Positions 2,761-38,789 of a DNA stretch of 45,135 bases are shown here, piece by piece. Origin of the DNA: a virus. Its lineage: Duplodnaviria; Heunggongvirae; Uroviricota; Caudoviricetes. Position 1 is the first letter of the stretch, and every line of letters begins with the position of its first letter. Under the pieces are notes generated by a model. The model did not search any database. It worked only from the letters and a program-made list of their open reading frames with translations, and was not told where the DNA came from. The position numbers and the translations under genes are program-made. The stretch is taken from IMG/VR virus record IMGVR_UViG_3300029549_000273; one strand, 5' to 3'.

Positions 2761-2895
2761 TATATAAAAGCCAGCGCTCCCAATGGGGGCACCGGCTGAA
2801 TTTTCATTTTGTTTGTGATACTTCCTTTGTATGTTTTCAGTATACGGCTTGTAGGAGAAACCCCCTTGTTTCAACGGCGGGAACTTGAGAACCCG
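2761..2895 (-). promoter_or_regulatory. conserved regulatory module E1 (8-bp boxes / -10 / leader / attenuator hairpin)
   Basis: box GGAACTTG-AGAACCCG at 2880, -10 TATACT 2839-2844, 35-nt gap. Confidence 0.85.
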
Positions 2896-2920
2896 AATTC
2901 CCGCTCTTGGAACCGCAAAG

Positions 2921-2952
2921 AAAAAGCCCGCTCTGCATTATGCAGAGCGGGC
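2921..2952 (-). terminator. intrinsic terminator
   Basis: GCCCGCTCTGCA/TGCAGAGCGGGC stem plus T-run on minus strand. Confidence 0.75.
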
Positions 2953-2962
2953 GTGCTTAGTC

Positions 2963-3334
2963 TCAGAGATTGAGGTTAATGCGGCGGTTGAGTTTCTTCA
3001 CCTCGTCCTTGCAGACGGTGCTCAATTCCTCCACTTCAGGAGCGGAATACACATTTTTGAGCATCGCGCAGGCGTCCTTGAAGGTGACATCCGGGCTGGT
3101 TGTGAAGAGAATGTTGGAATCATCCATCAGCTCAACGAGCCAGACAATGTACTCGTCCGTCTTGTTGTCCATCGTCAAATTGTCGATGATGTGATTCGTT
3201 TCCAGAAGCTCTGAGACAGCGGAGAAGTTCTCCGCCCATGCCGCGTGGCACTCGCGCTGTGCCTTCTCGACCTCATAGAACTCCTCGTCCGTCATAGTGT
3301 CGGCGAATACGCCGTAACAGTACGCTTTAATCAT
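2963..3334 (-). CDS. acidic hypothetical protein
   Basis: AAGGAG RBS, 123 aa. Confidence 0.65.
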   Translation of the reverse strand: MIKAYCYGVFADTMTDEEFYEVEKAQRECHAAWAENFSAVSELLETNHIIDNLTMDNKTDEYIVWLVELMDDSNILFTTSPDVTFKDACAMLKNVYSAPEVEELSTVCKDEVKKLNRRINLNL

Positions 3335-3346
3335 AATTTTGTCTCC

Positions 3347-4300
3347 TTATCGAAAGTCGGTATTCTCAAACAGATAGTCCACGACAATCTGTTCCGTCCG
3401 CTGCCGGGAAAGTCTCATTTTCTGAATGACTTCCACATCAGGGAACAGGTTTCTGATATGCCGCGAAGCACGAATAGCTCGCGACAAATCTTCGTCATCG
3501 CTGGCGTTATTCTCCACGAGGCACAACAGGTCATAGACCGGTGCGGAAGAAATGCTTAGGATAGAATAGATGGAGCATCTGCGGTTGAGCTTTTCGCATA
3601 CATCTCGCATCGTCTCCATGGGCGGCAGCGTGACGCAGATGCGTCCGTTGCAGTCATTCTTGAAGCATTTACCTCTTCCCGTCCCGGTTTTCTTACGGAG
3701 GCTCTCACGCCATCTGTCGTCCTCTCCATACAATCCGGAGCACCTGTCCGCCGGCCACCTTGGGTCACGAACATAGACGCACCACGTTGAGGAGTTGCTG
3801 TTTCTGTCTTCGAGCTTCACATGGGCGATGTATGGATTTGCTGCCTTGAGTCGGTCCAGTGAATCGTCTGCCATGTTCAGGTCCTCAAGGATTTCCTCTG
3901 TCGTTCTTCCCCCGCAATCCGCCGTCCGAATACAGGCGTCTGAAACAGACCGGGTAGAATAGCAGTATTTCAGAGCTTGACATACGGCGGAAACCGTTGC
4001 GTTCGCGGGTAGGGACAGTTCAATGCGGATATTGCAATCCAGTGTTTTCGCTGCTTCTTCGCAGTTCCATGCGTCAGAGCTGTGCGTCGCGGGGCGTCTG
4101 AAGTCCATCAGATAGACGGCCCAGATACTCCGTTCGCTTTCTGCCTGAATGGGATGTAAATTTGCAATGAACGGGTTTTCCCTGCGCAGACGCAGTATCC
4201 GGTCGTGTTCCTCCTTTCTCGCCAGCGCCGCGAATTCGCGGCTGTCCCTATCAGGATGATAGAGGAAAAAGAAGGCTGGTATGGAGTGTTTTCTTTTTAT
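3347..4300 (-). CDS. hypothetical protein with internal tandem domain duplication; probable ATA start (317 aa)
   Basis: frame is open 64 codons upstream of the called ATG (4108) to ATA at 4300 behind GGAGG; the extension resembles the second repeat. Confidence 0.55.
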   Translation of the reverse strand: MKRKHSIPAFFFLYHPDRDSREFAALARKEEHDRILRLRRENPFIANLHPIQAESERSIWAVYLMDFRRPATHSSDAWNCEEAAKTLDCNIRIELSLPANATVSAVCQALKYCYSTRSVSDACIRTADCGGRTTEEILEDLNMADDSLDRLKAANPYIAHVKLEDRNSNSSTWCVYVRDPRWPADRCSGLYGEDDRWRESLRKKTGTGRGKCFKNDCNGRICVTLPPMETMRDVCEKLNRRCSIYSILSISSAPVYDLLCLVENNASDDEDLSRAIRASRHIRNLFPDVEVIQKMRLSRQRTEQIVVDYLFENTDFR

Positions 4301-4312
4301 GCCACCCCTCCC

Positions 4313-4936
4313 TCACATCTCGAAACCGATGTCTCGGACGGGGTGCTTGGTCCCATAATCCTCATTGAACTGCTCCGCTGCCGGCTCTGGTACATAGCTG
4401 TCCCCGTCCGGCGTAAAGCGCCCATCAAGGATGATTTTCTGAAGTGTCTTTGCCGACAGGTCTTCGTCCGGGCCAAAGATAGCGGCTTCCTCCTCAGCGG
4501 TAATCCGAAGTGAAACGCCAAGCCGCGCCCACAGCTTGCGTGTGAGTGGCTTCTCACCGGAGGCAAAGTTGAACTGTGGGGCCTGCCGACGCTGCGCACA
4601 ATGCGTGAGCCATGCCTGAACCTCGTCTGTCCAATATTTCCTTCCGGCTGTATGACGGCCATCTGAAAAAATGATGCCTTTGCTGGACTCAATTTGGTGA
4701 ATGAAGATAGTCACTTCACCGCGAATCGGTTGAAACTTAATCGCCCACGGGCCATCCGCGTGAATCTTTCTCGCGGAAGCCGGCGTAGGAAAGCTCATAG
4801 CCCCCGTGTTGCTGGAGTAGTCCTGCTGCATCTGGTCGAATATCCAGTTTTCCAATTCGGAAAGGCTGGCAAAGGATTTCGCTTCAACTTTCCGCCAGAA
4901 GTCGTTCAGGTATCTTTCTAACTTTACGTTTAGCAT
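4313..4936 (-). CDS. hypothetical protein
   Basis: AAGGAG RBS before MLNVK. Confidence 0.65.
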   Translation of the reverse strand: MLNVKLERYLNDFWRKVEAKSFASLSELENWIFDQMQQDYSSNTGAMSFPTPASARKIHADGPWAIKFQPIRGEVTIFIHQIESSKGIIFSDGRHTAGRKYWTDEVQAWLTHCAQRRQAPQFNFASGEKPLTRKLWARLGVSLRITAEEEAAIFGPDEDLSAKTLQKIILDGRFTPDGDSYVPEPAAEQFNEDYGTKHPVRDIGFEM

Positions 4937-5055
4937 TTTTAGTTCTCCTTTCATTTGCGGCCGCTCAAAGCGGAAATCAGCTGCGCGAGGGAAGCCTGTT
5001 CTCCATTGTCGAGGATTTTCATATTCATCTTTCTCCTTGCGTGATTATTTTTTTG

Positions 5056-5198
5056 TATATAAAAGTCAGCACCCCCCAATGAGGCGCTGGCTGAACTTTC
5101 TTTATGTTTGTGATACTTCTTTTGTATGGTTTCAGCATACCGGCGGAGTGAGAAATTGTGCTATTTCTTAACAGGGAACCTGAGAATATGGGAACTTG
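5056..5198 (-). promoter_or_regulatory. conserved regulatory module E2
   Basis: boxes GGAACCTG AGAATATG GGAACTTG from 5175; -10 TATGCT 5134-5139; 35-nt gap. Confidence 0.85.
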
Positions 5199-5260
5199 AT
5201 TGCGATAAGGCCCGAAAAATGCCAGCGGATTGTAAGTCCGCTGGCATTTAGTGCATATAA

Positions 5261-6727
5261 TCATGCAAACTGTACCTGTCTCTGCGCCTGAAGGATACGC
5301 AGAATACAGCGCTTTATAAACTCACCGATTGCTACAGGCACGCTGTTTCCTACCTGCTGCTGCATCTGTCCGAGCGTTCCGCAAATGCGGAAATCCTTCG
5401 GCAGCCCTTGCAGAGCCTTCGCCTCCGCTACTGTCAGCGTTCGGTTCTCCAACGGATGAATGAGCGGAGGTTTCCGCCAATTCACAATGGTCGGAGAAGG
5501 CTCGTTCCATGCCAGACGCCGGTAGGTACAGGAATGGCGGTTTTTGCTTTCCGTACGGTATTCTTCTGGGATAGAGGCATAGTTGCCGCCCTGTGGCACG
5601 AAGCTCATACGCTTCTCCACCTCCGGACTTGGCTTGGTCACATCACCGTAATTGCTCCAGGATGCGTCCACTTTACCGATAGCATCTCCTGCCGTCCGGT
5701 ATTTCCCTGCCAGCGTAATGTCTGCCAGCTTTGGTGTACCGATGCGGCTGCCGAGGATAACAGCACGTTTCCGCGTTGTATAGCCTCCGACTTTGCAATC
5801 CTGCACGATACCGGAATCCAGCTCATAGCCGAAACTCTCAGCCTTTTCGCGGACTGCGGCATAGTAGGAACCACCGCAGGCGGTAAGGACTTCCGGTACG
5901 TTTTCGATAGCAAAGACTTTCGGATTGAGTGTTTCAACAATGCGCATATACTGCATCAAAAGGTCGCTGTCCGGATGGTCTTCTAACCGCGTGTGCCGGT
6001 TGGCGTTGCTGAACGGTTTGCAGGATGGACCGCCGACAATAACATCGGGAGCCTTTACCGTGCTGTCCAGCGGGAAACCATTCTCCTTGGTAAACGCTTT
6101 GTGAACATCCCCGTGAACGATGTGCATACCGATGTTCTGACGATAGGTCTGGCAGGCACCGGCGTCGTAGTCGATGGCATACTGGATGCTGAACCGCTCG
6201 TCCTTGAAAAACGGCCAGTCGAGGATGCCAGCACCTGAGAACAGAGACACCACAGAATATATATCTGGTAAATCCTTCTGAATTGCAGCGATGTCCAGCG
6301 GTGCTTTGCTGGATGCAAGGTATTCGTCCAGCGTGATTTGTGTGCCTTCCAGAATACGGGACACCGCGCAGCTGTCGCTGATGCCCACGACCTTTCTGGC
6401 CTGAGCCAGAAGCGTTCGTGGAAATTGCAGGACAACCGCGTGCTCCGCTTCACCCGAAACAAGGATACTTTCCGCCGTGATATGCAGACGGATATTTTCC
6501 ATGCCGGCAATCGCATCGAGCACTTCCCTGTTTCGCAGGTCGATAAGCGGGTTCCAGCCGGAGCCAGACCTCTTCCGCGACACGGTATAGCGACCCGTTT
6601 TAGACGGGACGATGCGGATGCCGGAGTTGCTGATGATGTAGTCGTACCGGCTTCCAATTTGCATGGTCTCTGTAGGCGTAAAACTGAACGTCAGCCCTCT
6701 TTTGCTTTCCTTAATTTTTTTGTCCAT
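5261..6727 (-). CDS. DNA (cytosine-5) methyltransferase with N-terminal extension, orphan
   Basis: LFSGAG, GGPSC, ENV, RTLT..EA, GNSV motifs; start MDKK after AAGGAG. Confidence 0.9.
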   Translation of the reverse strand: MDKKIKESKRGLTFSFTPTETMQIGSRYDYIISNSGIRIVPSKTGRYTVSRKRSGSGWNPLIDLRNREVLDAIAGMENIRLHITAESILVSGEAEHAVVLQFPRTLLAQARKVVGISDSCAVSRILEGTQITLDEYLASSKAPLDIAAIQKDLPDIYSVVSLFSGAGILDWPFFKDERFSIQYAIDYDAGACQTYRQNIGMHIVHGDVHKAFTKENGFPLDSTVKAPDVIVGGPSCKPFSNANRHTRLEDHPDSDLLMQYMRIVETLNPKVFAIENVPEVLTACGGSYYAAVREKAESFGYELDSGIVQDCKVGGYTTRKRAVILGSRIGTPKLADITLAGKYRTAGDAIGKVDASWSNYGDVTKPSPEVEKRMSFVPQGGNYASIPEEYRTESKNRHSCTYRRLAWNEPSPTIVNWRKPPLIHPLENRTLTVAEAKALQGLPKDFRICGTLGQMQQQVGNSVPVAIGEFIKRCILRILQAQRQVQFA

Positions 6728-6782
6728 TTTCTTTCTCCTTTTGAGAAGAAGGCGGCTGTTCTCAGCCGCCTTCTTCGTTTCG

Positions 6783-6980
6783 TTATTCATCATCATCTTC
6801 GCAGATATGCTCGTCCAGCGCACCGTTCTTCACGCAATCCTCGCAGAAGACAGCACCGCAGTCCGCGCAATCTACAGCCAAATCCTCTCTGCGGAGATGC
6901 TTCCCACAGTTGCAGCAGGAAAACAGCGTAGAGCCGATAGGGCGAAGAAATCTGGTGTATTTACTCTCCTTATTGGGCAT
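6783..6980 (-). CDS. small Cys-rich zinc-finger-like protein
   Basis: CCNC..CADC..CEDC..HIC pattern. Confidence 0.6.
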   Translation of the reverse strand: MPNKESKYTRFLRPIGSTLFSCCNCGKHLRREDLAVDCADCGAVFCEDCVKNGALDEHICEDDDE

Positions 6981-7245
6981 CTCTATTTTCCTCTCTTTCT
7001 GTGTCGGCGGATTCACAATGATGATGGACAATCACCGGGTCATCGCGGCCTATGTCATATACCGTTGTCAGCATATCATGGGTGCCGCTGTCATACTCCG
7101 TACAGGCCAACAGCTCAGGCTCGCATCCTTCGCGGAGCAATTCGACATAAACGCCGGGGTAATCCGCCATTATATCGCTATTCTCGTGCTTTGCGTAAAT
7201 GTGCAGGTCGCCCATCGGGGTTTTGACATGAAATTCTCGCTTCAT
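6970..7245 (-). CDS. hypothetical protein
   Basis: AAGGAGAAATGAAAATG start, first gene after E3. Confidence 0.6.
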   Translation of the reverse strand: MKREFHVKTPMGDLHIYAKHENSDIMADYPGVYVELLREGCEPELLACTEYDSGTHDMLTTVYDIGRDDPVIVHHHCESADTEREENRDAQ

Positions 7246-7282
7246 TTTCATTTCTCCTTTTCTGTGATGGTTTTGTGATATG

Positions 7283-7411
7283 TTAAAGCCAGCATCCGCA
7301 ATGGATACTGACTGAATTTTCTTTATGTATGTGATACTTCCTTTGTATGGTTTCAGCATACCGGCGGAGATGGAAAACGGCTCATTCCTCTATCGAGAAC
7401 CTAAGAACCTG
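7283..7411 (-). promoter_or_regulatory. conserved regulatory module E3
   Basis: boxes AGAACCTA AGAACCTG from 7396; -10 7355-7360; 35-nt gap. Confidence 0.85.
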
Positions 7412-7420
7412 GGAGTGCGC

Positions 7421-7451
7421 AAAAAAGGACCGGCAGGAAATCCTGCCGGTC
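7421..7451 (-). terminator. intrinsic terminator
   Basis: GACCGGCAGG/CCTGCCGGTC stem plus T-run on minus strand. Confidence 0.7.
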
Positions 7452-7466
7452 ACGAGAAATGTACAA

Positions 7467-7898
7467 CTATCTCCAGACCATGCTGCATTTATGTTCCGCG
7501 CAGTCCTCCAGGATTTTTTTGAAATCCCGAAACATCGCGCAGTCTTCGCGTCCAGCATAGCCATAGCAGATATTGTCGTCGTAGTTGCCGATGACCTTTA
7601 GCAACTCTTTACAGGCTCCATAACGAATCGAACCTTCACAGTCTGATTGCAAGCAGAAATCGACAATTTTCACGGAGACACGCTTCTTATTGAGAAGCTC
7701 CTCCGTTTTCTTGTCAAAATCCTCGTAGAACTTTTCACGTTCCTTTTCATCGCGAATGCGTTCCTCGACAAGCGCCTTGTAGTGGCTGGCCCACGGTTCC
7801 CCAACAAGTTCGGAAATTTTGCTCCGCAGCCGCAGGAAACCGCCGCTGCCCACGTCAATAGTCCGACCTGTCTTCGTGCAGGAAATTGTTACGCCCAT
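7467..7898 (-). CDS. hypothetical protein (QSDCEG motif)
   Basis: start MGVT abuts the stop of the kinase gene; the longer ORF call overlaps that gene. Confidence 0.65.
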   Translation of the reverse strand: MGVTISCTKTGRTIDVGSGGFLRLRSKISELVGEPWASHYKALVEERIRDEKEREKFYEDFDKKTEELLNKKRVSVKIVDFCLQSDCEGSIRYGACKELLKVIGNYDDNICYGYAGREDCAMFRDFKKILEDCAEHKCSMVWR

Positions 7899-7899
7899 G

Positions 7900-8490
7900 T
7901 TAAACCCGCTCCTGCCGTTTGATGTACTGGTAAACAAGGTCCGGAATCTCGTCTTCAAGACCCTTAACTGAAGCGAAATTGTTGCGAAAAACAACATCGC
8001 AGCATTCCTGTAGACCGTAGAGTGCGTAGGTTTTCGGGTTCGATGCGATACGGCGTGCTGGGGCGAACGCGATTCTGTCATGCTCAACGCGCTCGCTGAC
8101 AGCTTCCTTACTGTCGCCGCGTGCTCTCATGCGGCGCTTACAGACTTCTTCAGCTGCGAACAGCCCGATGACCTTCACGCCCTTTTTGCCGCTGTAATGC
8201 TCCTTCATGTAAGCCACACCAGCAGGGTCAATGGCGTAGATATCAGAGACTTCTACCATCTCGGCCGGAACGCCGTAGCGATGCCCGTCAAACACGGTAT
8301 ACGCGCACAGATTTTCCAGCTTGTCAAACTCCTCCGGAGTCACGAAGGTATGTCCTCCCTCGCCCTCAAAGCGGGGCGGGCGCTCCGTGTACGAGAGGAC
8401 CTGCTTGAGACGGTATTTCTCTTCGAGGCGGTTTGCCACCATCGTCTTGCCGGACCCGGATGGCCCAACGATAAGATAGATATTTTTCAT
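7900..8490 (-). CDS. guanylate kinase-like protein
   Basis: GPSGSGKT P-loop, SYTERPPR, YG motif. Confidence 0.8.
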   Translation of the reverse strand: MKNIYLIVGPSGSGKTMVANRLEEKYRLKQVLSYTERPPRFEGEGGHTFVTPEEFDKLENLCAYTVFDGHRYGVPAEMVEVSDIYAIDPAGVAYMKEHYSGKKGVKVIGLFAAEEVCKRRMRARGDSKEAVSERVEHDRIAFAPARRIASNPKTYALYGLQECCDVVFRNNFASVKGLEDEIPDLVYQYIKRQERV

Positions 8491-8510
8491 ACATCTTTCT
8501 CCTTTTTTGT

Positions 8511-8792
8511 TCAGAATAGCTGAATGCCAAACTTTTGAGCCGCTTGTACCAGAATGGCGTACTTTTCATCCGGCTCCGCTTCTGCAAATTTGCGTGAGGT
8601 TCCGGCCCTCACGGTTAATTCCAGCGCATACGGATTGTCCACCGTTGTGCAGTATGTGGACGCTGCCGCCAACTGTGCGGCAGTCATCCGCGTCGGCACT
8701 TCGAGCGTTGTGCCGCTCCGTTCAACATAGTGCCGGGTAATTCTATCCCTGCGCCACGGAACGAATGTCAGGTCGATTTTATTTTTGTGCAT
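8511..8792 (-). CDS. hypothetical protein
   Basis: GAGG RBS, operon context. Confidence 0.55.
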   Translation of the reverse strand: MHKNKIDLTFVPWRRDRITRHYVERSGTTLEVPTRMTAAQLAAASTYCTTVDNPYALELTVRAGTSRKFAEAEPDEKYAILVQAAQKFGIQLF

Positions 8793-8834
8793 TGTCGTTT
8801 TCCTCTATTTGCCTTAGCAGAACAGGCCGCTGTT

Positions 8835-9149
8835 TCACAGCAGCCCATTCTTGGTTTTGAATTCCAGTTTTTGTTTATCCGAGAATTTTTCGTAACGTTG
8901 GACAAACTCAACAATGAGCTTTTCCACGGCGTCCGGGGTGGCATACAGGTTATTTGCCCAGGCGCGGCATTTTCCGTTGTATCGGAGCAGAACCCCGATA
9001 TTCCTGGATGCAGCAGCGTAAAACACCGCAGGTATGAACTCAACGCCATCCTGCGTACTGTGAGAGTGCTTGGCGTATAACCCACTGACCCTGACCACTA
9101 CACCGGTCTCGGTCGGTGCATTTAACGATTTCTTGCATTGACATTTCAT
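8835..9149 (-). CDS. hypothetical protein
   Basis: GGAGG RBS before MKCQC. Confidence 0.55.
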   Translation of the reverse strand: MKCQCKKSLNAPTETGVVVRVSGLYAKHSHSTQDGVEFIPAVFYAAASRNIGVLLRYNGKCRAWANNLYATPDAVEKLIVEFVQRYEKFSDKQKLEFKTKNGLL

Positions 9150-9176
9150 AAAAAATACCTCCAACATAGTTTGGGA

Positions 9177-9208
9177 AACAACCCACTGCCTTTAGGCGGT
9201 GGGTTGTT
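9177..9208. repeat. inverted repeat resembling an IS200/IS605-superfamily end hairpin
   Basis: AACAACCCACTGCC-TTTA-GGCGGTGGGTTGTT. Confidence 0.45.
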
Positions 9209-9225
9209 GGCCCCGGTGTCCCTTT

Positions 9226-10017
9226 TCACTTGAATTTTTCGAGAATGACCTCACGTGCAATATCCGCCAGTTCATAAGGTGCTATGTAACTCGTCCGCTT
9301 AAACTCCTCATTCTTTCTTGCACGTTTCATAATGGCAACCATCAGGTTCGACAGACCTTCTTCCAGTGCTCCAAAACCCAATTCTTGTGTCAACGCTTTG
9401 CGGGCATTTTTCTCAAGGCAGTCGTCTACCCGATTCAGGTAAGTCGGCAGCTTCAACGCATCCGGAATGCGAACTTCAATCGAGTTGTAGTCCTCGTCGT
9501 TCTCTTTGCAAGCATATTCAGGGTATAGTGCGTCACGGTATCTCTTGGCCTCAAAAAGCTCGTCTGCGCGAAATCTGTCAGGGTCCATATTTTCCCGGTC
9601 CCAAATTACATCCGTGAGAATAAACTGGTCGCAAACCCTGTATATCGGTTCGCCGGTCACACGATATAGCGTGTCATCGCAAATCAGCCACTCTTCCTCA
9701 ATCTTCTTTACGGTTTTTGGAATATCGCCTTCTCGCTCAATGCGGCCATCGCACTGATAGTTCTTGAACTTCGCATCACTGCCTTGTGCGACGTAAAGCC
9801 GGCCATCATAGAGCCTGAACTCTTCTCCAACCTTTTTGTTCGTGCCGTAATCCATCTTGTAAACAACAATGGCCACCGGTGCGTTTTTGTCCACTTCGAC
9901 TCCCTGGAACTCTGGGATGTTGACCTCGACTGTCTTGGTGTGCAGAACATCCCTTGGTTTTCTGCACCGTGGAGGGATTTCCTGGACATACCATTCGAAT
10001 TTGTAATCTACTTTCAT
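9226..10017 (-). CDS. hypothetical protein (PPRCRKPR N-terminal motif)
   Basis: 263 aa, AAGGAG RBS, first gene after E4. Confidence 0.7.
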   Translation of the reverse strand: MKVDYKFEWYVQEIPPRCRKPRDVLHTKTVEVNIPEFQGVEVDKNAPVAIVVYKMDYGTNKKVGEEFRLYDGRLYVAQGSDAKFKNYQCDGRIEREGDIPKTVKKIEEEWLICDDTLYRVTGEPIYRVCDQFILTDVIWDRENMDPDRFRADELFEAKRYRDALYPEYACKENDEDYNSIEVRIPDALKLPTYLNRVDDCLEKNARKALTQELGFGALEEGLSNLMVAIMKRARKNEEFKRTSYIAPYELADIAREVILEKFK

Positions 10018-10049
10018 TTTTCCATTTCTCCTTTTTGAGTTAAGATTTT

Positions 10050-10216
10050 TATATAAAAGCCAACGGTTCGAAAAAACCGTCGGCTGAATGTTCTGTATTG
10101 CTTGTGATACTTCCTTTGTATGGTCTCAGCATACCGGCATCTTGCCGATTCGCGTCTTTTCCCCGTCAAGAACCTTGGAATATGGGAACCTTGGAATGTA
10201 GGAGGCTCGGAACCTG
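10050..10216 (-). promoter_or_regulatory. conserved regulatory module E4 (six tandem boxes)
   Basis: AGAACCTT GGAATATG GGAACCTT GGAATGTA GGAGGCTC GGAACCTG 10169-10216; -10 10128-10133. Confidence 0.85.
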
Positions 10217-10345
10217 TAAAAGGTCTGCGGTTCCGGAGTGGGAATCTCTCCTGTACTTGAAAACGGAAGAGCAAAATAGCAAAGCGTCTCCCCCCACCGC
10301 CAAAAAAACGGCCCCCTCTCATTTAGCTGAGAGGGGGCGGGTTTT

Positions 10346-10891
10346 TTATGTCCAACCGAGCTTGTCCAGATACGGAAGCGCGGCCTTAATGCGCTGCACG
10401 CAACGGTCATTGTAGCTTCCCGGTTCCGCGTTCTGGTGCTTGCTGAGGAACTTTCTCATTGCGCGGGGCGTACCGGCGCAAGTTGCAGCGTCCAGAATAG
10501 TCTGCGCACCATCGCACTTTACGGCCTTGAGCGTGTCTGGATTCACCTGACAGCCATCAGCCCCGCCGACCTGGCAAAGCGGCAGATATCCGTCTGCCAT
10601 ATTGTTGCCGATGTTCCAAATGACATAGCCAAGGGGAACCTTGTCAACAACTTGGAATGAGTGGTGTTCATCCACGATGGTCTTCACCCCGTCATGAACC
10701 TCCAACTCGTCCTCGAAGGCATCAGTCTCAAATCCATCCGCAAAGCGGACATGGAACATTCTGCCGACGTCAGCGATATCCGCTTCCCTGTCGGTCAGTT
10801 CCCGAAGGACCTCTACGACCTGCCCGGTGCGGGCATTCAGTTTGGAATCCCCATTGTGGGAATCATAGACTTTCTTGCGATAGTAACTCAT
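10346..10891 (-). CDS. hypothetical protein
   Basis: overlapping stop/start with upstream gene, terminator downstream. Confidence 0.7.
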   Translation of the reverse strand: MSYYRKKVYDSHNGDSKLNARTGQVVEVLRELTDREADIADVGRMFHVRFADGFETDAFEDELEVHDGVKTIVDEHHSFQVVDKVPLGYVIWNIGNNMADGYLPLCQVGGADGCQVNPDTLKAVKCDGAQTILDAATCAGTPRAMRKFLSKHQNAEPGSYNDRCVQRIKAALPYLDKLGWT

Positions 10892-11763
10892 TTCTTCGTC
10901 TCCTTTCCATTCGTAAGATAGCCCTCGACGTAGACGCCTATGAGTGCGCCAAGCGCACGGGCAGCATCCTCAAAGGTGGCATACTCCTCGTCCGTATCGT
11001 ACTCTGTCGCAGCAGACTCGAAAGATGCCTCCGCAAGCAGAGCGGGGAATTCGTCACTCTCAATCGTCTCCTTTGGCCAACCGAACTCGCTAATCAAGTG
11101 GGTCTGTTCGTCCGCGTCAATGTCGCTCGGATAGACGAAGCCATGCGCCACATGGAATAAGTCGTCTCCGTACTGATTGACTTGTGCCAGTTCATAGACA
11201 CCATTGCCCTTTTCGGGAGCCATGCGGCGGAACTGCATAGTATCGGGGTCCGTTGCAACCCACTGACCCATGAATTCCTTCTCTAACCACTTGACCCATG
11301 CCTGGATATCTCCGCAGGCGTCCAGCACATTGTCTGTTTCGTCCACGACCATTCCCTCGCTCCAATCACCGTTCGGTCCTTGCACAAAAACCTCAATCCA
11401 GTTGTTCGCGGTATACTCGATGCGTTCGTCTTCAATGGCCTTATCAAGCTCTGCGTCGCTCTTAAAAGCTGTACGCAGGTGGTCGGAGGCAGCCATGCTC
11501 ATTGCCCCGTTGTTCAAGCGGTTAGTGTACTCAAAATCCTTGCCGTCAACAACGCCGCAGATTACGACATCTCCATGCACCTCAAGGGCCACCGTGTAGT
11601 CCTTGTACATGAAGCCTCCAATATAGCCTCCGTACCAAACACAGCAAAGATGGTCGTCGTCAATGAAGACCTCCGGCTTGGTTAGCAGCTCGACACCGAG
11701 CTGTTTTGCTTCCTGCTGCATTTTTGCAAATGCAGCGTTAATGTTTTTCCTGTTTGTTTCCAT
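10888..11763 (-). CDS. acidic hypothetical protein
   Basis: 291 aa, AAGGAG RBS, first gene after E5. Confidence 0.7.
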   Translation of the reverse strand: METNRKNINAAFAKMQQEAKQLGVELLTKPEVFIDDDHLCCVWYGGYIGGFMYKDYTVALEVHGDVVICGVVDGKDFEYTNRLNNGAMSMAASDHLRTAFKSDAELDKAIEDERIEYTANNWIEVFVQGPNGDWSEGMVVDETDNVLDACGDIQAWVKWLEKEFMGQWVATDPDTMQFRRMAPEKGNGVYELAQVNQYGDDLFHVAHGFVYPSDIDADEQTHLISEFGWPKETIESDEFPALLAEASFESAATEYDTDEEYATFEDAARALGALIGVYVEGYLTNGKETKK

Positions 11764-11797
11764 TTTTCAATTTCTCCTTTTCGATTTTAAGATGTTT

Positions 11798-11929
11798 TAT
11801 GTAAAAGCCAGCGGCTCGAAAACCGCTGGCTGAATTATTGAACTGTTTGTGATACTTCCTTGGTATACTCTCAGCATACGGCAAAGTCTCAAATAAGCCT
11901 GATTCTATTTGCAAGAACCTGAGAACCTG
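11798..11929 (-). promoter_or_regulatory. conserved regulatory module E5
   Basis: AGAACCTG x2 from 11914; -10 11873-11878; 35-nt gap. Confidence 0.85.
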
Positions 11930-11979
11930 ACTTCTTCAAAGAAGGCCGACAGGAAAACCTGTCGGCCTGGTATCTGGGA

Positions 11980-12369
11980 TTATTTGTGACCGCCACTCTT
12001 TTTCAGGGCATCCTCTGCGTCCTCGTAGTCTGCAAGGCGGTCCTTGCAACGATTGCGGCAATAGAGCGCCGTGCATTGTACGAGGGGCTTTCCATGCTTG
12101 GCAGTCCAATCGGCCTCACATTTCTGGCAATCCATGACCGCCTGACCATCGGAGAGGCGCTTGGTGAAGCGGTCCTGCTCATGTCCGCCTTCCTGGTCTG
12201 AAACGTCCGATTCGAGGTCAGACCATGCGAGCATTTTTTGCATCTCCTCTGCGGAAACGCCAAGGATTTCAGCTCCGACGGCAAGAAGCAAATCGGTGGT
12301 TGCTTCGTCGCCGTCGTTGGCAAGACAGTAAGACCGAATGATGCTGATGACATCTTCCTTAGAACGCAT
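11980..12369 (-). CDS. hypothetical protein
   Basis: AAGGAGG RBS before MRSK. Confidence 0.6.
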   Translation of the reverse strand: MRSKEDVISIIRSYCLANDGDEATTDLLLAVGAEILGVSAEEMQKMLAWSDLESDVSDQEGGHEQDRFTKRLSDGQAVMDCQKCEADWTAKHGKPLVQCTALYCRNRCKDRLADYEDAEDALKKSGGHK

Positions 12370-12383
12370 TTTGCTATCCTCCT

Positions 12384-13133
12384 TCACTTGACAGATTCGA
12401 TATAGAGGATTTTGGGCATTTCTTTCCAATGATTGTCCTCACGAAAGTCGTTGCGGAAGAGGTTTAACGCTTCAAAAATGCTGTTGACATCAAACTCTGT
12501 CTCGTCATCACTGCCGGTATCTGGATTGACAAAGCCAACACGGATGGCAAATGGCGAAATCTCCTGCAAGGCAGCCGCATAGGCCTCCGTGTAGGCGTCA
12601 TCCTTGCTCATACCGCCTGCGATAGCGTGTTCGTATACGGTCTTGAATGCCTCCGATTCGATGATTTCCTCTTCGGAGCAGGTATCTGCGTCAGGCAGCG
12701 TGTCTGCGTCCTCTGCATCGCTTTCCGAAGGAATATCATACAGCACAGGCACATAGAAGAGATACAAGCCAGGACTCAGCGAAAGAACGGCGTTTGCCGC
12801 GTCATACTCGTCGTTGCAGACCACAAACGGGTGGTCGTTCATCTCCATGAACTGACGCACCCCTTCCTCGCAGAGCTGGTCGTAGAGGTTAATGCCGCCG
12901 CAGGCCGTTCCGTTAATGTCGGTCCAGGTCCTCCAGAAGCCATTATTCAGAAAGGCCGCTGCCGCAGCGCCACGGTCTGCAAGCGTCCATTCCTCTCCGA
13001 ATTCCTCACCCTGCACGCCGTCTTCGGCATCAGGATTCAGCGAGCGGAGAAGGCGCACGCTGTCGTCTTCGCACAGCTTGATAAGCGCAAGGTTGGCAAG
13101 GCCATTCTCTTTGAATGAAACGATTTGGAACAT
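12384..13133 (-). CDS. acidic hypothetical protein
   Basis: AAGGAG RBS before MFQIV. Confidence 0.65.
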   Translation of the reverse strand: MFQIVSFKENGLANLALIKLCEDDSVRLLRSLNPDAEDGVQGEEFGEEWTLADRGAAAAAFLNNGFWRTWTDINGTACGGINLYDQLCEEGVRQFMEMNDHPFVVCNDEYDAANAVLSLSPGLYLFYVPVLYDIPSESDAEDADTLPDADTCSEEEIIESEAFKTVYEHAIAGGMSKDDAYTEAYAAALQEISPFAIRVGFVNPDTGSDDETEFDVNSIFEALNLFRNDFREDNHWKEMPKILYIESVK

Positions 13134-13281
13134 GATTTTTCTCCTTTTTGATTTTGGGGTTGGGCGGGATTTTGCTCCCGCCCAACTGTTCTGGTGTGTG
13201 TCGGCGTTAAGCTCTTTTGTGTAGGTTATTCCAATTTTGAATAAGTGAAACTGCACGAAGCGAAGTCGGAACTCACGCCTT

Positions 13282-13458
13282 TCAGAACGCGATGTCTACA
13301 TCCGCCGTTCCAACGCTGTTATTGGATTGCTCTTTCAGTTGATGTTCAATTCGTAGCAATATTTCGTTCTGCTGCTGCATCCGTGCCGCAATCTCACCGA
13401 TGGCGTTGGCAATATGCTCGACGGCGTTTTGTCCTGCGGCACTTTCAAAATAGGTCAT
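13282..13458 (-). CDS. small helical hypothetical protein
   Basis: GGAGG RBS, overlapping stop/start; N-terminus resembles 28790-29146. Confidence 0.55.
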   Translation of the reverse strand: MTYFESAAGQNAVEHIANAIGEIAARMQQQNEILLRIEHQLKEQSNNSVGTADVDIAF

Positions 13459-14087
13459 TCTGTCGCCTCCCTTTCGCGGGCAAAGTATTCCGTGATGACA
13501 GACTGCCATGTGTCATTTTCTGCCACATTACAATCCATCGCGTCCTCATACTCTGCGACGAGTGCCTCCAGCGCATAGTTGCGAGATTCCACGTCCATCA
13601 ATTCGACGAACGGATAGCCGTATTTCATGACAAACGCATGGCTGTTCTCTTTGCTATCCTCTTCGTCAAACGGTGAATTTTCCTTCGTATTGATGCCAAA
13701 AAAGGCGGACAGTTGAATTTCCGCATCAGCGAGACGGTACTGATGCTCGCGCTTGCGGTAGGCTGTCTCCAGTTCGTATTCGGTCAACTCGAATTCCGGA
13801 ACGCCGCCGTCAAGGTCGGTATCGTGGTTCTCGTAGTACCGAATCAGAGCAGCAATGCCTCCGGCGTCGATGGTCAGCGGCTTAATGCCCCGACCGCTGT
13901 GGGAGAGTTTGGCTCCGTAATGTACCTCCTTGGCATCTGTCTCGTGCGTTTTTTTGGGCTTGCCACAGAAGGAACCCTCAAAGGTCAGGAAAGCGAACTC
14001 TTTTCCGTCTTTGTCAGTGTAGACACAGACCTCGGTTTCCCCCATATCGCAAGGGAGGAACATTTTGCGTTCTTCTTTGAATTTCAT
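13455..14087 (-). CDS. acidic hypothetical protein
   Basis: first gene after E6. Confidence 0.7.
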   Translation of the reverse strand: MKFKEERKMFLPCDMGETEVCVYTDKDGKEFAFLTFEGSFCGKPKKTHETDAKEVHYGAKLSHSGRGIKPLTIDAGGIAALIRYYENHDTDLDGGVPEFELTEYELETAYRKREHQYRLADAEIQLSAFFGINTKENSPFDEEDSKENSHAFVMKYGYPFVELMDVESRNYALEALVAEYEDAMDCNVAENDTWQSVITEYFAREREATE

Positions 14088-14121
14088 TTTTTCATTTCTC
14101 CTTTTTTTGAATTAAGATTTT

Positions 14122-14253
14122 TATATAAAAGCCAGCGGTCTGAAAACCGCTGGCTGAATTGTTTCTTTAATTGTGATACTTCTTTGGTATGGTCTTAGCA
14201 TACCGGCAAGCGCAAAAAACGGCTCATTTTTTTACTGGGAACCTAAGAACCCG
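14122..14253 (-). promoter_or_regulatory. conserved regulatory module E6
   Basis: GGAACCTA AGAACCCG from 14238; -10 14197-14202; 35-nt gap. Confidence 0.85.
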
Positions 14254-14265
14254 GAAAGATGCAAT

Positions 14266-14295
14266 AAAAAAGACCGGCAGGAAAACCTGCCGGTC
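14266..14295 (-). terminator. intrinsic terminator of the HU gene
   Basis: GACCGGCAGG-AAAA-CCTGCCGGTC plus T-run. Confidence 0.7.
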
Positions 14296-14311
14296 AAGAA
14301 TATGAGCGAGA

Positions 14312-21632: not shown

Positions 21633-21748
21633 ACCGCCTTTGGATGAAAAGCGGCGCTTCTGGACGCGCGGTAGACTCCGAGAAAGAGTCCGTAGACTTC
21701 GGCAGTCACGATGGCTGCCACGAGGATGGTGTTGAGGATGTTGAACAT
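21633..21748 (-). CDS. exon 1 of intron-interrupted small membrane gene
   Basis: AAGGAG RBS, MFNILNTILVAAIVTAEVYGLFLGVYRASRSAAFHPKA runs up to the intron. Confidence 0.55.
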
Positions 21749-28789: not shown

Positions 28790-29146
28790 TCACTTCACCT
28801 CCAATTCCACGATTTTCCAGTCATTGTCTCCGTGATGGTTCGCCCATGCGTTGTCTTCGTGGATTTCAAAGTCATCGTAGCAATCTCCGATATGCAGATT
28901 ATTGGCATCCGCAACGCCGGTCTGAGCAATCTCAGCCAGCATCTGTGCCTGCGCTGCTTCGAGAGATGGAAACTGCTCTGCGGTGATTTCACGGTCAAGG
29001 ACCGAAATCAGCAGGTATGGCTTTGCGGCAGTCTTGTTTTGCTCTTCCATTGCCTTTGCAATACGCTCTGCGCTCTTTACAAGGGATGGAAAGTCGTGAT
29101 TGAGGAACCGTTGTCCGGCGACTGTTTCAGCAAAATTCATTTTCAT
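28790..29146 (-). CDS. hypothetical protein
   Basis: first gene after E8. Confidence 0.65.
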   Translation of the reverse strand: MKMNFAETVAGQRFLNHDFPSLVKSAERIAKAMEEQNKTAAKPYLLISVLDREITAEQFPSLEAAQAQMLAEIAQTGVADANNLHIGDCYDDFEIHEDNAWANHHGDNDWKIVELEVK

Positions 29147-29173
29147 TTCTCCTTTTTGTTTATGAAATTTTTA

Positions 29174-29314
29174 TATATAAAAGCCAGCATCCGCAATGGA
29201 TGCTGACTGAATTTTCTTTATGTATGTGATACTTCCTTTGTATGGTTTCAGCATACCGGCAGGCACAGAAAACGGCGCATTCTACCGCTCGGAACCTGAG
29301 AACCAAAGAACCTC
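29174..29314 (-). promoter_or_regulatory. conserved regulatory module E8
   Basis: GGAACCTG AGAACCAA AGAACCTC from 29291; -10 29250-29255; 35-nt gap. Confidence 0.85.
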
Positions 29315-29845: not shown

Positions 29846-30046
29846 TCAATCGTAATATATCTTTCCGTGCTGGTCGAGGGCAATCACTTCCTGCGGATTC
29901 TGCGCCTGAGCAATGAGCGCGGTAAGATGCTCCAGCGTCTCGTCCTCGTCGCGATGAATGCGGAAGATGCCCATATCCGTGCTGATTTTCCAGGTGGTAT
30001 CATAGCCCGGACGTTTTTCCAAAAGCTCAACTTTTCTGGCTTCCAT
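29846..30046 (-). CDS. small hypothetical protein
   Basis: AAGGAG RBS before MEARK. Confidence 0.55.
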   Translation of the reverse strand: MEARKVELLEKRPGYDTTWKISTDMGIFRIHRDEDETLEHLTALIAQAQNPQEVIALDQHGKIYYD

Positions 30047-30135
30047 GATTAAATCTCCTTTTTGTGTGATAAGTGTTGGGTGGTCTACATCCGTGCTTTT
30101 TGCGGCAGCGGCGAGGCAAATGCAATAAGTGTTGG

Positions 30136-30213
30136 ATACTTCCTGAATATACCTCAATACTACCATCTCACTCCCTTCTGAATAACCTTTTTCTATAGGA
30201 ACCTAAGAACCTC
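30136..30213 (-). promoter_or_regulatory. degenerate regulatory module E9
   Basis: GATACTTCC core, -10-like TAGTAT 30157-30162, GGAACCTA AGAACCTC at 30198 (35-nt gap). Confidence 0.6.
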
Positions 30214-33780: not shown

Positions 33781-34777
33781 TGGACTTCACCTCCAGCTTC
33801 ACCGACTCGATGGCGCGAATAGCGTTGCCGAATCGCTTTGTGAGATGGTGGTCTTCTGCCCATTTCAGTACCGCTTTTTCACTTGGAAACATTTTGGCCT
33901 TCTCAGAAGAAGTGGAAGTCCAGATGCGGCTTCTCGTGAGCTTCACGATATAGGCTCCAGCCCTGTCTCCTTCCGTGATACGCAGAGCAAACAACTTCTC
34001 CGCAGGCTTGGAACTTTTAGCACTGTCAGCGCCAGCCCGTTCAAATGTGACCTTACTTGCGTGGAACGTGATACTGCCGAGTTCAGCAATGGCGTCGTCG
34101 ATGTTCTTAAACACCTTTGCAGCAGCTCTATTGCGTTCGTAATTCCGGCAGCTGTGCTCCGTCTTTGTGTAGTAGCCATAAGGAGCCACTTTCACGACAA
34201 CCGGTTCGTCATCACTCAGGGATGCCATCTTTTCGATGGAAAGCGGTTCACGGCCCTCAAAGGACAGATACGGGTAGAATTCCGTTACCGTTTTGTCGCT
34301 TCCATATACCTTCCACGCGCTTTCCATTTCCTCGGCAAACGCCTCAAGTTCCTGTGTTGTCTTGCAGTAGCAGTTGTGGACTGTTTCGCGCTTGTCCCCA
34401 CGCCATACAACGATTCTGCCGTACAAAGGCGTATTGGGGCGGAAAAAGTTGATGCGTTCGATGTTCATGGCATTTCTGATGCCGCTCTCAACCCACTTGA
34501 GCACATCCTTGCAATACAGCCACTTTCCGCCCTGCTTCGCAAATTCGTAATCCGCGCCGTCACCGGTCGAGATAGCTCTCGCCCGTTCCAGCAGCTCTTC
34601 CGCAGGGATGGCAATGCGCTTATCCTTGTTGCTCAGCGTCATGGGATACCAGTTCCGTTCGAGGACTTCTCTTCCCTGAATAAATTCTGTGCAGTTGTTT
34701 GAACCGCTCAAAATCATTGGGATGATGCCTTTTGTCGTTTTTACAAACTGCCTCCCGTAGATAATGGAATAACTCAT
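33770..34777 (-). CDS. hypothetical protein (GSNNC motif)
   Basis: 335 aa, first gene after E10. Confidence 0.7.
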   Translation of the reverse strand: MSYSIIYGRQFVKTTKGIIPMILSGSNNCTEFIQGREVLERNWYPMTLSNKDKRIAIPAEELLERARAISTGDGADYEFAKQGGKWLYCKDVLKWVESGIRNAMNIERINFFRPNTPLYGRIVVWRGDKRETVHNCYCKTTQELEAFAEEMESAWKVYGSDKTVTEFYPYLSFEGREPLSIEKMASLSDDEPVVVKVAPYGYYTKTEHSCRNYERNRAAAKVFKNIDDAIAELGSITFHASKVTFERAGADSAKSSKPAEKLFALRITEGDRAGAYIVKLTRSRIWTSTSSEKAKMFPSEKAVLKWAEDHHLTKRFGNAIRAIESVKLEVKSNGC

Positions 34778-34811
34778 TTTTCATTTCTCCTTTTCATGTT
34801 TTCTGGTGGGA

Positions 34812-34943
34812 TATATAAAAGCCAGCGGCCTGAAACCGCTGACTGAACTTTCCTTGTGTTTGCGATACTTCCTTTGTATGCTCTCAGTATACCGACAGAA
34901 ACGGGAGACACCTCATTCCCCCCTTCAGGAACCTGAGAACCCA
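34812..34943 (-). promoter_or_regulatory. conserved regulatory module E10
   Basis: GGAACCTG AGAACCCA from 34928; -10 TATACT 34886-34891; 36-nt gap. Confidence 0.85.
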
Positions 34944-36743: not shown

Positions 36744-36762
36744 TTCTTCTCCTCTTAGTAAT

Positions 36763-37215: not shown

Positions 37216-37244
37216 TGGTTTTTCCCCTTTTCGGATTTAGTGTC

Positions 37245-37703
37245 TTACGCCGGTATCAGACCGAACGTTTCCTTAAACCAGCTTCTGATTTCCTCCTTGC
37301 TCGTCCCCGCTTTGAACGGAACCGCCGTAGGACTCTCCTGTGTGCCGCACCAGACCGTCCACTCTTCGCGGATGCGGCCCGTCGCGTCTCTTGGCGTCTT
37401 GGCGTAGTCCGTCCAAAGGGACTGTGCGATGTACTTCTTTGCCCACGTCTGAAGCTCTGCGCCCTCCTGCTCCAACACAGTATCCATATAGACCCTTGCG
37501 GAGATACCATCCAGGCTGTCGCCGCAATGCAAATCTATCTGCTTCTGTGCCCATCTGTGCATGAAAGCATACCCAGGCAGGTTTCGAAAACGCCAAATCC
37601 GAGCCGCGAAATTCTTTTCGTAGGCATACTGGACATGATTGTTCTGCTTCCAGCCCAAGGGTACAATGTTGAGCGGACCTTTCGGTAAATCTTCTCTCGT
37701 CAT
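37245..37703 (-). CDS. hypothetical protein
   Basis: AAGGAG RBS. Confidence 0.65.
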   Translation of the reverse strand: MTREDLPKGPLNIVPLGWKQNNHVQYAYEKNFAARIWRFRNLPGYAFMHRWAQKQIDLHCGDSLDGISARVYMDTVLEQEGAELQTWAKKYIAQSLWTDYAKTPRDATGRIREEWTVWCGTQESPTAVPFKAGTSKEEIRSWFKETFGLIPA

Positions 37704-37717
37704 GTTTCGAACTCCTT

Positions 37718-37894
37718 TCAGCAGATTCCGTTCTCTCTGAACTCTGTCAGCAGACCATAGCGCCGACCGAGTTGTTCAAAGACGGACTGCGCGATGGCAA
37801 GCTCCTCGTAGCTTATGGATTGCTCTCCAAACCGTTCCTGCCACTCGATAGCTTTCTCACGCGCCTTTTTCTTTTTTTCCTGATAAGTGCTCAT
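37718..37894 (-). CDS. small hypothetical protein, 58 aa (not in ORF track)
   Basis: MSTYQEKKKKAREKAIEWQERFGEQSISYEELAIAQSVFEQLGRRYGLLTEFRENGIC*, AAGGAG RBS. Confidence 0.65.
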   Translation of the reverse strand: MSTYQEKKKKAREKAIEWQERFGEQSISYEELAIAQSVFEQLGRRYGLLTEFRENGIC

Positions 37895-38097
37895 TCTTTC
37901 AATGTCTCCTTTTCGTTGATTTTTTTGGTATTTGCGAAAATAGGTGGGTGGAGAGAGTTGCTTGGGTTATCCCGCAAGCAACTCTCTTCTTATCTGTATT
38001 TAGCCTTTTGCAGGGCTTACAACGCCATGAAGATGTCTTCCGCATCAGGGGTTTCCCACGAAATCGTGTACATTGCTTTTTCTCCTTTTACAAAAAT

Positions 38098-38616
38098 TCA
38101 GAATTCCGCTTCGCATTCCTGAATGTTGTCCAGAACAGCTTTGACAGGGCAATCCAGACACGCGGTCTCAAAGTCCTTCAAAGTCACTGTGCCGTCCTCA
38201 GAGACGGAGGCATGGTCGCACTGAGCGCAGAAATTCCAGCAATCCTGCTGCGTCAGAGATGGCTCTCCAAGCAGCTCATACCAGGGGCGCGTATCAGGCG
38301 TTACATGGAACTTTGCCAGCGGGCAAACCGTTTCTGTCCCAATAAAGGGGCCGAGCTTGTCCTTGGACGGCTTATTGCTATGCCCACAATCGTAGGCACA
38401 GTAACACTGGCCACGGCCGCAAATGAGCTGAGCAATCAACTCGCGGTCTTTGAACTCCTCCACAGAGCAGTTCTTGATGAGCCATCCGTACTTGTCGGAC
38501 AGGGCGTCAACCGCCGCATCCGCATCGTCGGCACCGTCAACGATTTCCTCGGTAGGAAGAGAAACTTCCTCCCCATCCGTCTCCCAGTCGATGCTGGTTA
38601 TCATGAATTTTGCCAT
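38098..38616 (-). CDS. acidic Cys-rich hypothetical protein
   Basis: first gene after E11. Confidence 0.65.
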   Translation of the reverse strand: MAKFMITSIDWETDGEEVSLPTEEIVDGADDADAAVDALSDKYGWLIKNCSVEEFKDRELIAQLICGRGQCYCAYDCGHSNKPSKDKLGPFIGTETVCPLAKFHVTPDTRPWYELLGEPSLTQQDCWNFCAQCDHASVSEDGTVTLKDFETACLDCPVKAVLDNIQECEAEF

Positions 38617-38655
38617 TTCAAGTATTCTCCTTTCAGTTTTTTGACTGTTTTTTTA

Positions 38656-38789
38656 TATATAAAAGTCAGCATCCCTAACGGACGCTGACTGAACATTCTT
38701 TATGTTTGTGATACTTCCTTTGTATGGTCTGAGCATACCAGAAGATATGCAAAGCGTGAAATTTCCCGTCGCAGGAACCTAAGAACCTT
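38656..38789 (-). promoter_or_regulatory. conserved regulatory module E11
   Basis: GGAACCTA AGAACCTT from 38774; -10 38732-38737; 36-nt gap. Confidence 0.85.

Follow-up and report, generated by a model that had tools for sequence, protein, structure and literature searches.

A cassette of likely promoter, 9-mer and predicted terminator repeated ahead of many operons of a Clostridial conjugative element

What does a noncoding sequence do that stands, little changed, ahead of many separate operons of one mobile element? The question is raised by the IMG/VR record IMGVR_UViG_3300029549_000273, a stretch of 45,135 nucleotides that is here called the window. The original prediction saw in it a dispersed module of eleven copies that defines a Clostridial early or establishment regulon. 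A shared promoter and leader indeed heads many operons of a Clostridial conjugative element, with 11 copies in the window, 20 in its nearest relative, a predicted integrative conjugative element (ICE) in genome G001, and 19 in a distant element, record G1226. The cassette likely lets one element-encoded factor switch on about 20 gene clusters together.

Cassette copies and their conserved core

Nine full and two partial copies lie in the window, every one on the minus strand as predicted. A 29-nt pattern derived from the copies gave nine matches in the window (0 expected from 100 shuffles), nhmmer returned the nine full copies at E<1e-37, and an unbiased repeat finder recovered 7-copy families. 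The partial copies at 22071 (E 2) and 30136 (E 0.63) are not significant by nhmmer. A minimal pattern, TAnnnT-N11-15-ARGRAGTAT, was built from both ICE lineages (the window/G001 type and G1226), and matches exactly 11 times in the window, at the nine full and two partial copies. All eleven positions first proposed are therefore correct, nine by the 29-nt pattern and nhmmer and all 11 by the minimal pattern. The copies are as follows, with the ribosome-binding site abbreviated as RBS and open reading frame as ORF.

2729..2893, minus strand: full copy 1; boxes at 2893 and 2885, -10 TATACT at 2844-2839, 9-mer at 2826-2818, hairpin at 2797-2769, ATG at 2731
5026..5196, minus strand: full copy 2; boxes at 5196 and 5180, -10 at 5139-5134, hairpin at 5092-5064, ATG at 5028; a 25-aa ORF and then a 213-aa ORF follow
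7243..7409, minus strand: full copy 3; heads a block whose last gene is a C5 methyltransferase
10015..10190, minus strand: full copy 4, by nhmmer and the minimal pattern
11761..11927, minus strand: full copy 5, by nhmmer and the minimal pattern
14085..14251, minus strand: full copy 6; the 5′ end of its first gene differs in G001, with the break at the ATG
29138..29312, minus strand: full copy 7, with three boxes
34775..34941, minus strand: full copy 8, by nhmmer and the minimal pattern
38614..38787, minus strand: full copy 9, directly behind the operon of parA and its partner; its first gene (38098-38616) is absent from G001 and L122
22071..22156, minus strand: partial copy; box pair as a dyad, TAAACT and 9-mer, a different leader, no hairpin with U tract
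30044..30211, minus strand: partial copy; two boxes, TAGTAT and 9-mer, no terminator, RBS and ATG at 30046, back to back with a plain sigma-A promoter at 30226

The order proposed for the copies (boxes, a spacer of about 36 nt, -10, leader, hairpin with TTTTATATA, RBS) was found correct. Where the terminator of the previous block had been placed ahead of most full copies, a clear hairpin lies just 5′ of seven of the nine; it is weak at 29174, and none lies within 150 nt at 10050.

The architecture in the window/G001 lineage was read from 32 representatives, obtained by clustering 128 distinct copies at 90%, and is numbered from a putative start 7 nt behind the -10. GGTTCY boxes lie at about -53, -61 and -69. 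AAT is conserved at -38 to -36, and the -35 hexamer is not conserved. The -10 region reads GG-TATGCT, and +1 to +23 is nearly invariant, with GAAGTATC at +9 to +16. A hairpin of about 11 bp ends near +62 and is followed by TTTTATATA in 30 of the representatives, and RBS and start codon come about 45 nt beyond; nearly every copy has an RBS and an ORF at this fixed distance. The upper, variable hairpin pairs (6-11) are paired in 172 of 180 cells, compared with 149.5 ± 4.0 (maximum 163) in 2000 shuffles of the 3′ arms, which take no account of relatedness.

The distant element was reached by the profile of one gene linked to tra genes, and its shared proteins are mostly 25-68% identical. Its 19 copies have promoters of the form TTG..-N16-18-TAnnnT (mostly TTGAC, with the same AAT ahead), and AGGRAGTAT is invariant between variable flanks. 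A hairpin with a tract of 5-7 U is present at the 18 minus-strand copies, and 11 other promoters of G1226 lack the 9-mer. These complete sigma-A promoters bear out the -10 that had been called in the window. Orthologous operons headed by the cassette in both elements are the ERF-primase, vWA, YqaJ-RecD2 and methyltransferase operons.

The minimal pattern matches 11 times in the window, 20 times in the G001 ICE and 19 times in G1226, compared with 0 in 419 kb of G001 host flank and 0.2 in shuffles. Therefore, the -10 call and both partial copies stand, and the 9-mer and terminator form an ancestral core. Comparison of the copies thus supports a conserved core that starts with the promoter, has the invariant ARGRAGTAT at about +7 to +15 and a covarying terminator hairpin near +70, and closes with the RBS. 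That the hairpin is a predicted terminator between promoter and RBS, and makes up the conserved core with the 9-mer, had not been part of the original prediction.

One variant copy, at G001:C1 239,281 (L070), carries an unrelated terminator at the same place, before a gene read from its C-terminal tail as single-stranded-DNA-binding protein (SSB)-like. A perfect complement 17 nt downstream could pair with its 9-mer, and the variant copy is conserved in nine viral-contig loci. Beside the cassettes there is a second class of plain, near-consensus sigma-A promoters (TTGAC-N-TGTGGTATAAT) at window positions 14672, 17396, 18654, 25482, 30226 and 40163, which head the HU gene, nrdD, parA and others.

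The cassette pattern was found on 10 IMG/VR contigs and at least 125 metagenome stretches, many from the human gut. Promoter plus 9-mer matched in one of 351 genomes of the class, and the 20 single matches on other viral contigs are mostly ribosome-binding sites, with L378 ambiguous. The cassette matched no Rfam family: the window gave only a group II intron, 2600-14400 at E<=10 nothing near a gathering score, and G1226 only tRNA. PLSDB and INPHARED held no real match to the cassette, a phage search gave no match over more than 24% of the query, and a literature search, with subscription papers and supplements outside it, returned nothing relevant on the cassette. The 9-mer resembles a CsrA site. 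This candidate was rejected, as no CsrA gene was found in G001 (97% complete), the related genome G002 or G1226, and nine of the 32 representatives lack GGA.

Upstream boxes and the partition locus

The 8-bp boxes read GGTTCYnn, and tandem boxes number 35 in the G001 ICE compared with 2 in the host flank. Outside the copies, they form a centromere-like array of about 1.2 kb downstream of rep and also flank the parA promoter. The boxes are thus common to the cassettes and the partition locus, a point absent from the original prediction. The partition features of the window are these.

39309..40091, minus strand: ParA ATPase (Pfam AAA_31, E 5e-52)
38846..39304, minus strand: ParA partner of 152 aa behind parA, likely a ParG-like ribbon-helix-helix (RHH) protein and candidate box binder
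40135..40203, minus strand: plain sigma-A promoter of parA; immediately ahead of its -35 lie 8-bp boxes in both orientations, likely an autoregulatory operator

As at type Ib partition sites, tetramer boxes recur at an 8-bp period both in the array and at the par promoter. Because boxes also form the array beside rep and flank the parA promoter, they are likely bound by the ParG-like partition protein, whose gene lies right behind parA. The partner had an atlas lead to CB_ParB_C on 26% of a cluster at 0.90, its match to Pfam RHH_1 (E 0.092) is below cut-off, and its profile matched in one of 401 genomes of the order. In G1226 a related, box-like repeat has a GTGC core with the same 8-bp period and occurs in all three geometries (12, 6 and 9, compared with about 1.5 per orientation). 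The boxes are a second, lineage-variable layer over the conserved core.

Two other roles of the boxes were discarded. They are not the iterons of rep, whose iteron-like repeats are a different 28-mer upstream of rep. Nor are they host LexA boxes of the Firmicute consensus GAAC-N4-GTTC: this dyad occurs twice in the ICE (about 3.8 expected) compared with 39 direct repeats, and no LexA-like gene was found in the G001 ICE. Boxes of two copies, at G001:C1 307,432 and 311,838, are inverted and lie about 9 bp further upstream. Near its sigma gene, G1226 has a stand-alone LexA-type DNA-binding domain (65,533-65,916), with no counterpart in the G001 ICE.

Exchange of genes behind the cassette

Copies were also compared by what flanks them. 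Among 220 instances with full flanks (154 distinct), there were 19 upstream contexts, 25 first genes and 27 pairs of the two. At least two different first genes were found in 7 of the 19 contexts, and two genes each stand behind two contexts. When 13 pairs were aligned, breakpoints fell at the ATG or inside the module, and identity often stops exactly at the ATG (7283 of the window against L115, 11798 against L136, 14122 against G001). In G002, a direct repeat of about 30 nt made of RBS and ATG flanks a gene of about 515 bp, and L154 has one whole cassette that L024 lacks. Exact matches between window copies span 12-28 nt, with one pair at 58; because these are so short, most joins are unlikely to be assembly errors.

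In these comparisons, genes are swapped at the cassette ATG or by crossover between copies, as with the PeSLs of T4-type phages, and the copies act as gene-swap points, which had not been foreseen. The shared sequence, above all the RBS-ATG block, is probably the recombination point for cargo, plausibly by way of the ERF and YqaJ proteins.

Read-through as the proposed switch

How could such copies control their operons? A copy would supply a sigma-A-type promoter, then the invariant 9-base motif, the predicted intrinsic terminator and the RBS. Operons would be off by default, and a candidate ICE factor recognising the 9-mer would open all of them jointly by read-through. The boxes, bound by the ParG-like protein, would tune initiation, and where the -35 is lost the protein may activate, as omega2 can. 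For this model as a whole the chances seem to us about even, and its parts differ. It is highly probable that transcripts start about 7 nt behind the -10 and terminate near +70. A role of the 9-mer as the loading site of an antiterminator, as RNA or non-template DNA, is moderately favoured, and to a similar degree we lean towards a ParG-like protein that binds the boxes, tunes initiation and may activate in the lineage without a -35.

The case for a trans-acting factor is made by exclusion. No antiterminator fold recurs across the 32 representatives, and no antisense source of more than 14 nt was found in the ICE. A cis antiterminator or antisense RNA was thereby rejected, and therefore a terminator before DNA-processing genes needs a trans-acting bypass, for which the invariant, orientation-fixed 9-mer is the obvious handle. 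Candidate antiterminators are the RpoD-like sigma and an S1-domain protein whose gene, in each of the two elements, stands behind a plain promoter of its own. A promoter active on single-stranded DNA (Frpo/ssi type), which has a stable hairpin over -35 and -10, was also discarded, since no such hairpin is supported (mean z 0.02 on both strands, 32 representatives). The idea of a copy driving the tra genes was narrowed: the operon behind the copy is that of ERF and primase, and in G1226 a separate plain promoter serves virB2.

Several points weigh against the read-through model. Two of the 32 representatives and both partial copies of the window keep the 9-mer and lack the hairpin, the U tract is imperfect, the sense strand is more stably folded than the antisense in only 21 of the 32, and the covariation shuffle ignores relatedness. 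No element-encoded NusG was found in the ICE (there is only the host nusG in G001 and none in G002, with G1226 outside the search). As for the boxes, the RHH fold of the ParA partner was not confirmed (the monomer model has pLDDT 61 and lacks a strand, and neither Foldseek nor the PDB gave a match), a box lies upstream of only 10 of the 19 G1226 copies, and no ParA or partner homologue was detected in G1226, a record possibly incomplete. Some of the swaps rest on single metagenome contigs (L115, L136), which may be assembly errors.

The alternative that survives best is the repressor-controlled establishment regulon of the original prediction. There, the 9-mer, the boxes or both are operators, a recipient that lacks the repressor lets the promoters fire, and the terminator does no more than reduce output. 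The place of the 9-mer at +7 to +15 is suitable for a repressor, the motif stays in terminator-less copies, and the cargo has a methyltransferase, a primase and the SSB-like gene. According to the available parts of the sources, Reg576 has an operator upstream of the -35 too (PMC6294495), and StbA, the partition protein of R388, acts as a repressor of establishment promoters (PMC3937220). However, the 9-mer is single, non-palindromic and fixed in orientation, and the copies are scattered over the element. The model leaves unexplained why a strong terminator of 11-15 bp is retained in both lineages and swapped for an unrelated one at G001 239281, and, being default-on in the recipient, it must account for read-through there without a factor. 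We consider it improbable.

Reverse polarity is less probable again. An ICE-encoded RNA-binding protein, such as the S1 protein if constitutively transcribed, would bind ARGRAGUAU and enforce termination, and its absence from a new host would allow transient read-through. Imperfect U tracts and the plain promoter of the S1 gene in both elements agree with this, and it would reconcile the terminator with induction on entry. But a helper seems unneeded, as the hairpin folds without competing structure and the G1226 tracts have 5-7 U.

A private sigma or a mechanism of the lambda-Q type seems very unlikely overall. In it, the RpoD-like sigma of the ICE reads the promoters, or AAGTAT is a sigma-dependent pause that loads a Q-like protein of sigma4-alphaCTD type. 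The RpoD-like sigma gene is next to a copy in both elements, the -35 is lost in the window/G001 lineage, and AAGTAT at +10 to +15, which retains the A and T of a -10-like hexamer in the 32 representatives, lies close to where phage 82 has its pause element (available text of PMC5001585). Yet the promoters of the G1226 copies are of the ordinary sigma-A type, the full elemental pause sequence, necessary according to the same text, is in 0 of 20 and 0 of 19 copies, and the sigma4-alphaCTD match in G1226 covers only 123 residues of an ORF that resembles the C-terminal domain alone.

Weakest is the idea that the terminated RNA of about 70 nt is the functional molecule, a multicopy decoy that would occupy an RNA-binding protein of host or phage while the genes are expressed by leak: an unstructured, A-rich RNA encoded some 20 times, with the 9-mer invariant and a terminator to protect it, would fit, but nearly every copy is followed by RBS and ORF at a fixed distance and the CsrA results above give it no partner, so that we scarcely credit it.

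With the read-through model, the repeat becomes a directly testable switch, whose 9-nt site, terminator and few candidate factors are common to two diverged elements. The cassette also tags several dozen orphan genes per element as co-regulated and mobile, which gives a list for screens of host interaction and anti-defence in gut Clostridia. As a tentative and rather doubtful extension, giant Clostridial ICEs might run a phage-like programme, in which a new, sequence-specific antiterminator other than NusG reads a 9-nt site at about 20 leaders, a partition protein sets initiation via centromere-type boxes, and the cassette captures cargo at the start codon without an integrase. If true, conjugative elements of Gram-positive bacteria would have a new principle of control, an antiterminator of this kind that acts on about 20 separate leaders, and the cassette would be an integrase-free platform for expression and capture of uncharacterised host-interaction genes.

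Carrier element and cargo

The window genes are mostly 91-99% identical to those of G001 (one block 68%), where they lie within a low-GC island of about 152 kb (50-53% GC, compared with 58-65% around it). The island encodes a large serine recombinase, VirB2, VirB4, VirD4 and CHAP proteins, topoisomerase III, two Rep3-like proteins, ERF, primase, YqaJ, RecD2, UvrD, an RpoD-like sigma, two sigma4-alphaCTD fusion proteins and eight tRNAs. It interrupts a host gene in frame, and the joined ends are present in G002, from which excision is deduced. Because conjugation genes and a serine recombinase occur together with the in-frame split and the joined ends, the element is, on sequence grounds, an ICE of gut Clostridia. 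A relaxase was not confirmed in the ICE and oriT was not found. A 462-aa relaxase candidate was dropped (atlas lead below 0.9, no Pfam match, a model of pLDDT 40, no fold match); its profile matched in 3 of 400 genomes of the class, two weakly, and in 1 of 165 of the genus. The G1226 record has no integrase and ends inside adhesin repeats, and may be incomplete.

The ICE ends lie at G001:C1 229,415 and 381,460 (L070, L078), and the joined site at about 42,000 in G002. The split host gene is conserved and near spoIIIAA, and excision would restore it. Excision is possibly linked to sporulation by analogy with skin elements. The eight tRNAs form a cluster inside the ICE (G001:C1 233,324-234,819) adjoining the recombinase gene. 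At L072:5797-9166, two adjacent proteins are built of units of sigma70 region 4 and RNA polymerase alpha-CTD, three in one protein and a single one in the other, and have a nuclease-like domain at the C-terminus; no more than two sequence clusters were found, a full match occurred in 1 of 301 genomes of the family, and a 373-aa RpoD-like sigma is encoded just downstream. A gene for a beta-lactamase-family serine hydrolase is inserted among cassettes at L071:8385-9734, and L074:12528-13634 encodes an SLH protein with a Pfam ATLF-type peptidase domain. In the window, a group II intron (19082-21670; RT/maturase/HNH) interrupts a small membrane-protein gene at a site that is intron-free in G001.

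The cargo was described on 39 ORFs of cassette blocks in the window, a set that we chose. An orphan C5 methyltransferase had been noted downstream, and it is present in the block of copy 3.

5261..6823, minus strand: orphan C5 DNA methyltransferase; in G1226 the orthologous gene (65%) comes first after a copy

The description of the cargo as mostly small, acidic and Cys-rich was overstated, with pI below 5.5 in 17 of the 39 and more than 3.5% Cys in 9. Pfam matches were NT5C, a guanylate-kinase-like protein and DpnD/PcfM, and PHROGs gave two unknown families. Methyltransferase, ERF, primase and YqaJ/RecD2 are cargo in both G001 and G1226, with the SSB-like gene in G001. The methyltransferase is the only cargo with a defence link (PADLOC/NCBIfam). 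An anti-defence function of the cargo, for which it had been called a prime candidate, is put as a hypothesis because PADLOC on the 39 ORFs returned only the methyltransferase and a weak kinase-like match. A 769-aa protein (14693-17002) combines an N-terminus that looks kinase-like by eye with a linker rich in Pro and Gln, a membrane helix and an Ig domain.

Relation to known systems

Mobile elements with repeated operon heads are already known (EGeRS, CUP, PeSL); in the literature searched, none is described that joins a 9-mer shared across lineages to a leader terminator and partition-type boxes. The analogy with CUP repeats and Bacillus plasmid p576 that was drawn originally is apt for the box layer. 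CUP repeats are a repeated upstream element ahead of maintenance and anti-restriction genes. ArdK is a KorA-family HTH protein of IncN-IncW plasmids (PMC9723621; PMC3937220, in the parts available, which describe no leader terminator for CUP/ArdK), whereas no KorA-family HTH protein was found in the ICE, and CUP is Proteobacterial.

In EGeRS2/Reg576 of p576, a conserved upstream sequence stands before several operons with short direct repeats, at a 2-bp gap, upstream of the -35 (PMC6294495; PMC8708921, as far as their available text goes). The ICE, also a conjugative element of Gram-positive bacteria, likewise places an upstream sequence ahead of several operons, has direct repeats 2 bp apart and offers an RHH protein as candidate reader. 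However, there is no sequence likeness, boxes of GGTTCYnn replace the dual TTATCCC operator, ardC was not found in the ICE, the candidate binder is the ParA partner, and the -35 is degenerate in the window lineage and complete in G1226; the text available describes no leader terminator for EGeRS2. EGeRS1 of pLS20 is similar in being a repeated upstream element that blocks read-through just before the RBS, but it spans 420-750 bp, is multi-branched and has no detectable promoter, compared with about 170 bp, one hairpin and a promoter-like -10 in the ICE (available text of PMC8708921).

Type Ib partition loci resemble the box layer. From what is available of the papers, the RHH protein ParG binds parH and OF of TP228, which consist of degenerate tetramers spaced 4 bp apart (PMC3130281), and omega2 of pSM19035 activates or represses by occupancy (PMC4627068). 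As with ParG, omega2 and StbA, tetramer boxes, direct or inverted, form an array and lie at the par promoter, and in those systems the partition protein controls other promoters. The ICE differs in having about 20 target promoters and a terminator gate, and its binding and centromere role are predicted.

For the terminator gate, the nearest systems, again from partial text, are the cATT zipper attenuator of pLS20 with conAn antitermination (PMC13401043) and the lambdoid pR′-pause-terminator with Q (PMC5001585). Both have a promoter and then a leader terminator that needs bypass, but each gates one operon compared with about 20 short leaders in the ICE, which lacks a zipper fold, a pause signature and a NusG paralogue.

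The PeSL cassettes of T4-type phages are close in layout. In the accessible text of PMC2839356 and PMC4122927, these are dispersed units of a sigma70-type promoter, a terminator stem-loop, a Shine-Dalgarno sequence and a start codon before non-essential orphan genes, which are shuffled by recombination between copies, and their stem-loops lie mostly between or over the promoter boxes. The stem-loop of the ICE cassette lies downstream in the leader, the cassette adds an invariant 9-mer and upstream 8-bp boxes, and its carrier is a Clostridial ICE with VirB4/VirD4 and a serine recombinase rather than a T4-type phage. At the sequence level, the ICE cassette has the same series of promoter, terminator stem-loop, Shine-Dalgarno sequence and start codon before orphan genes, and genes are gained and lost with breakpoints in the cassette there as well.

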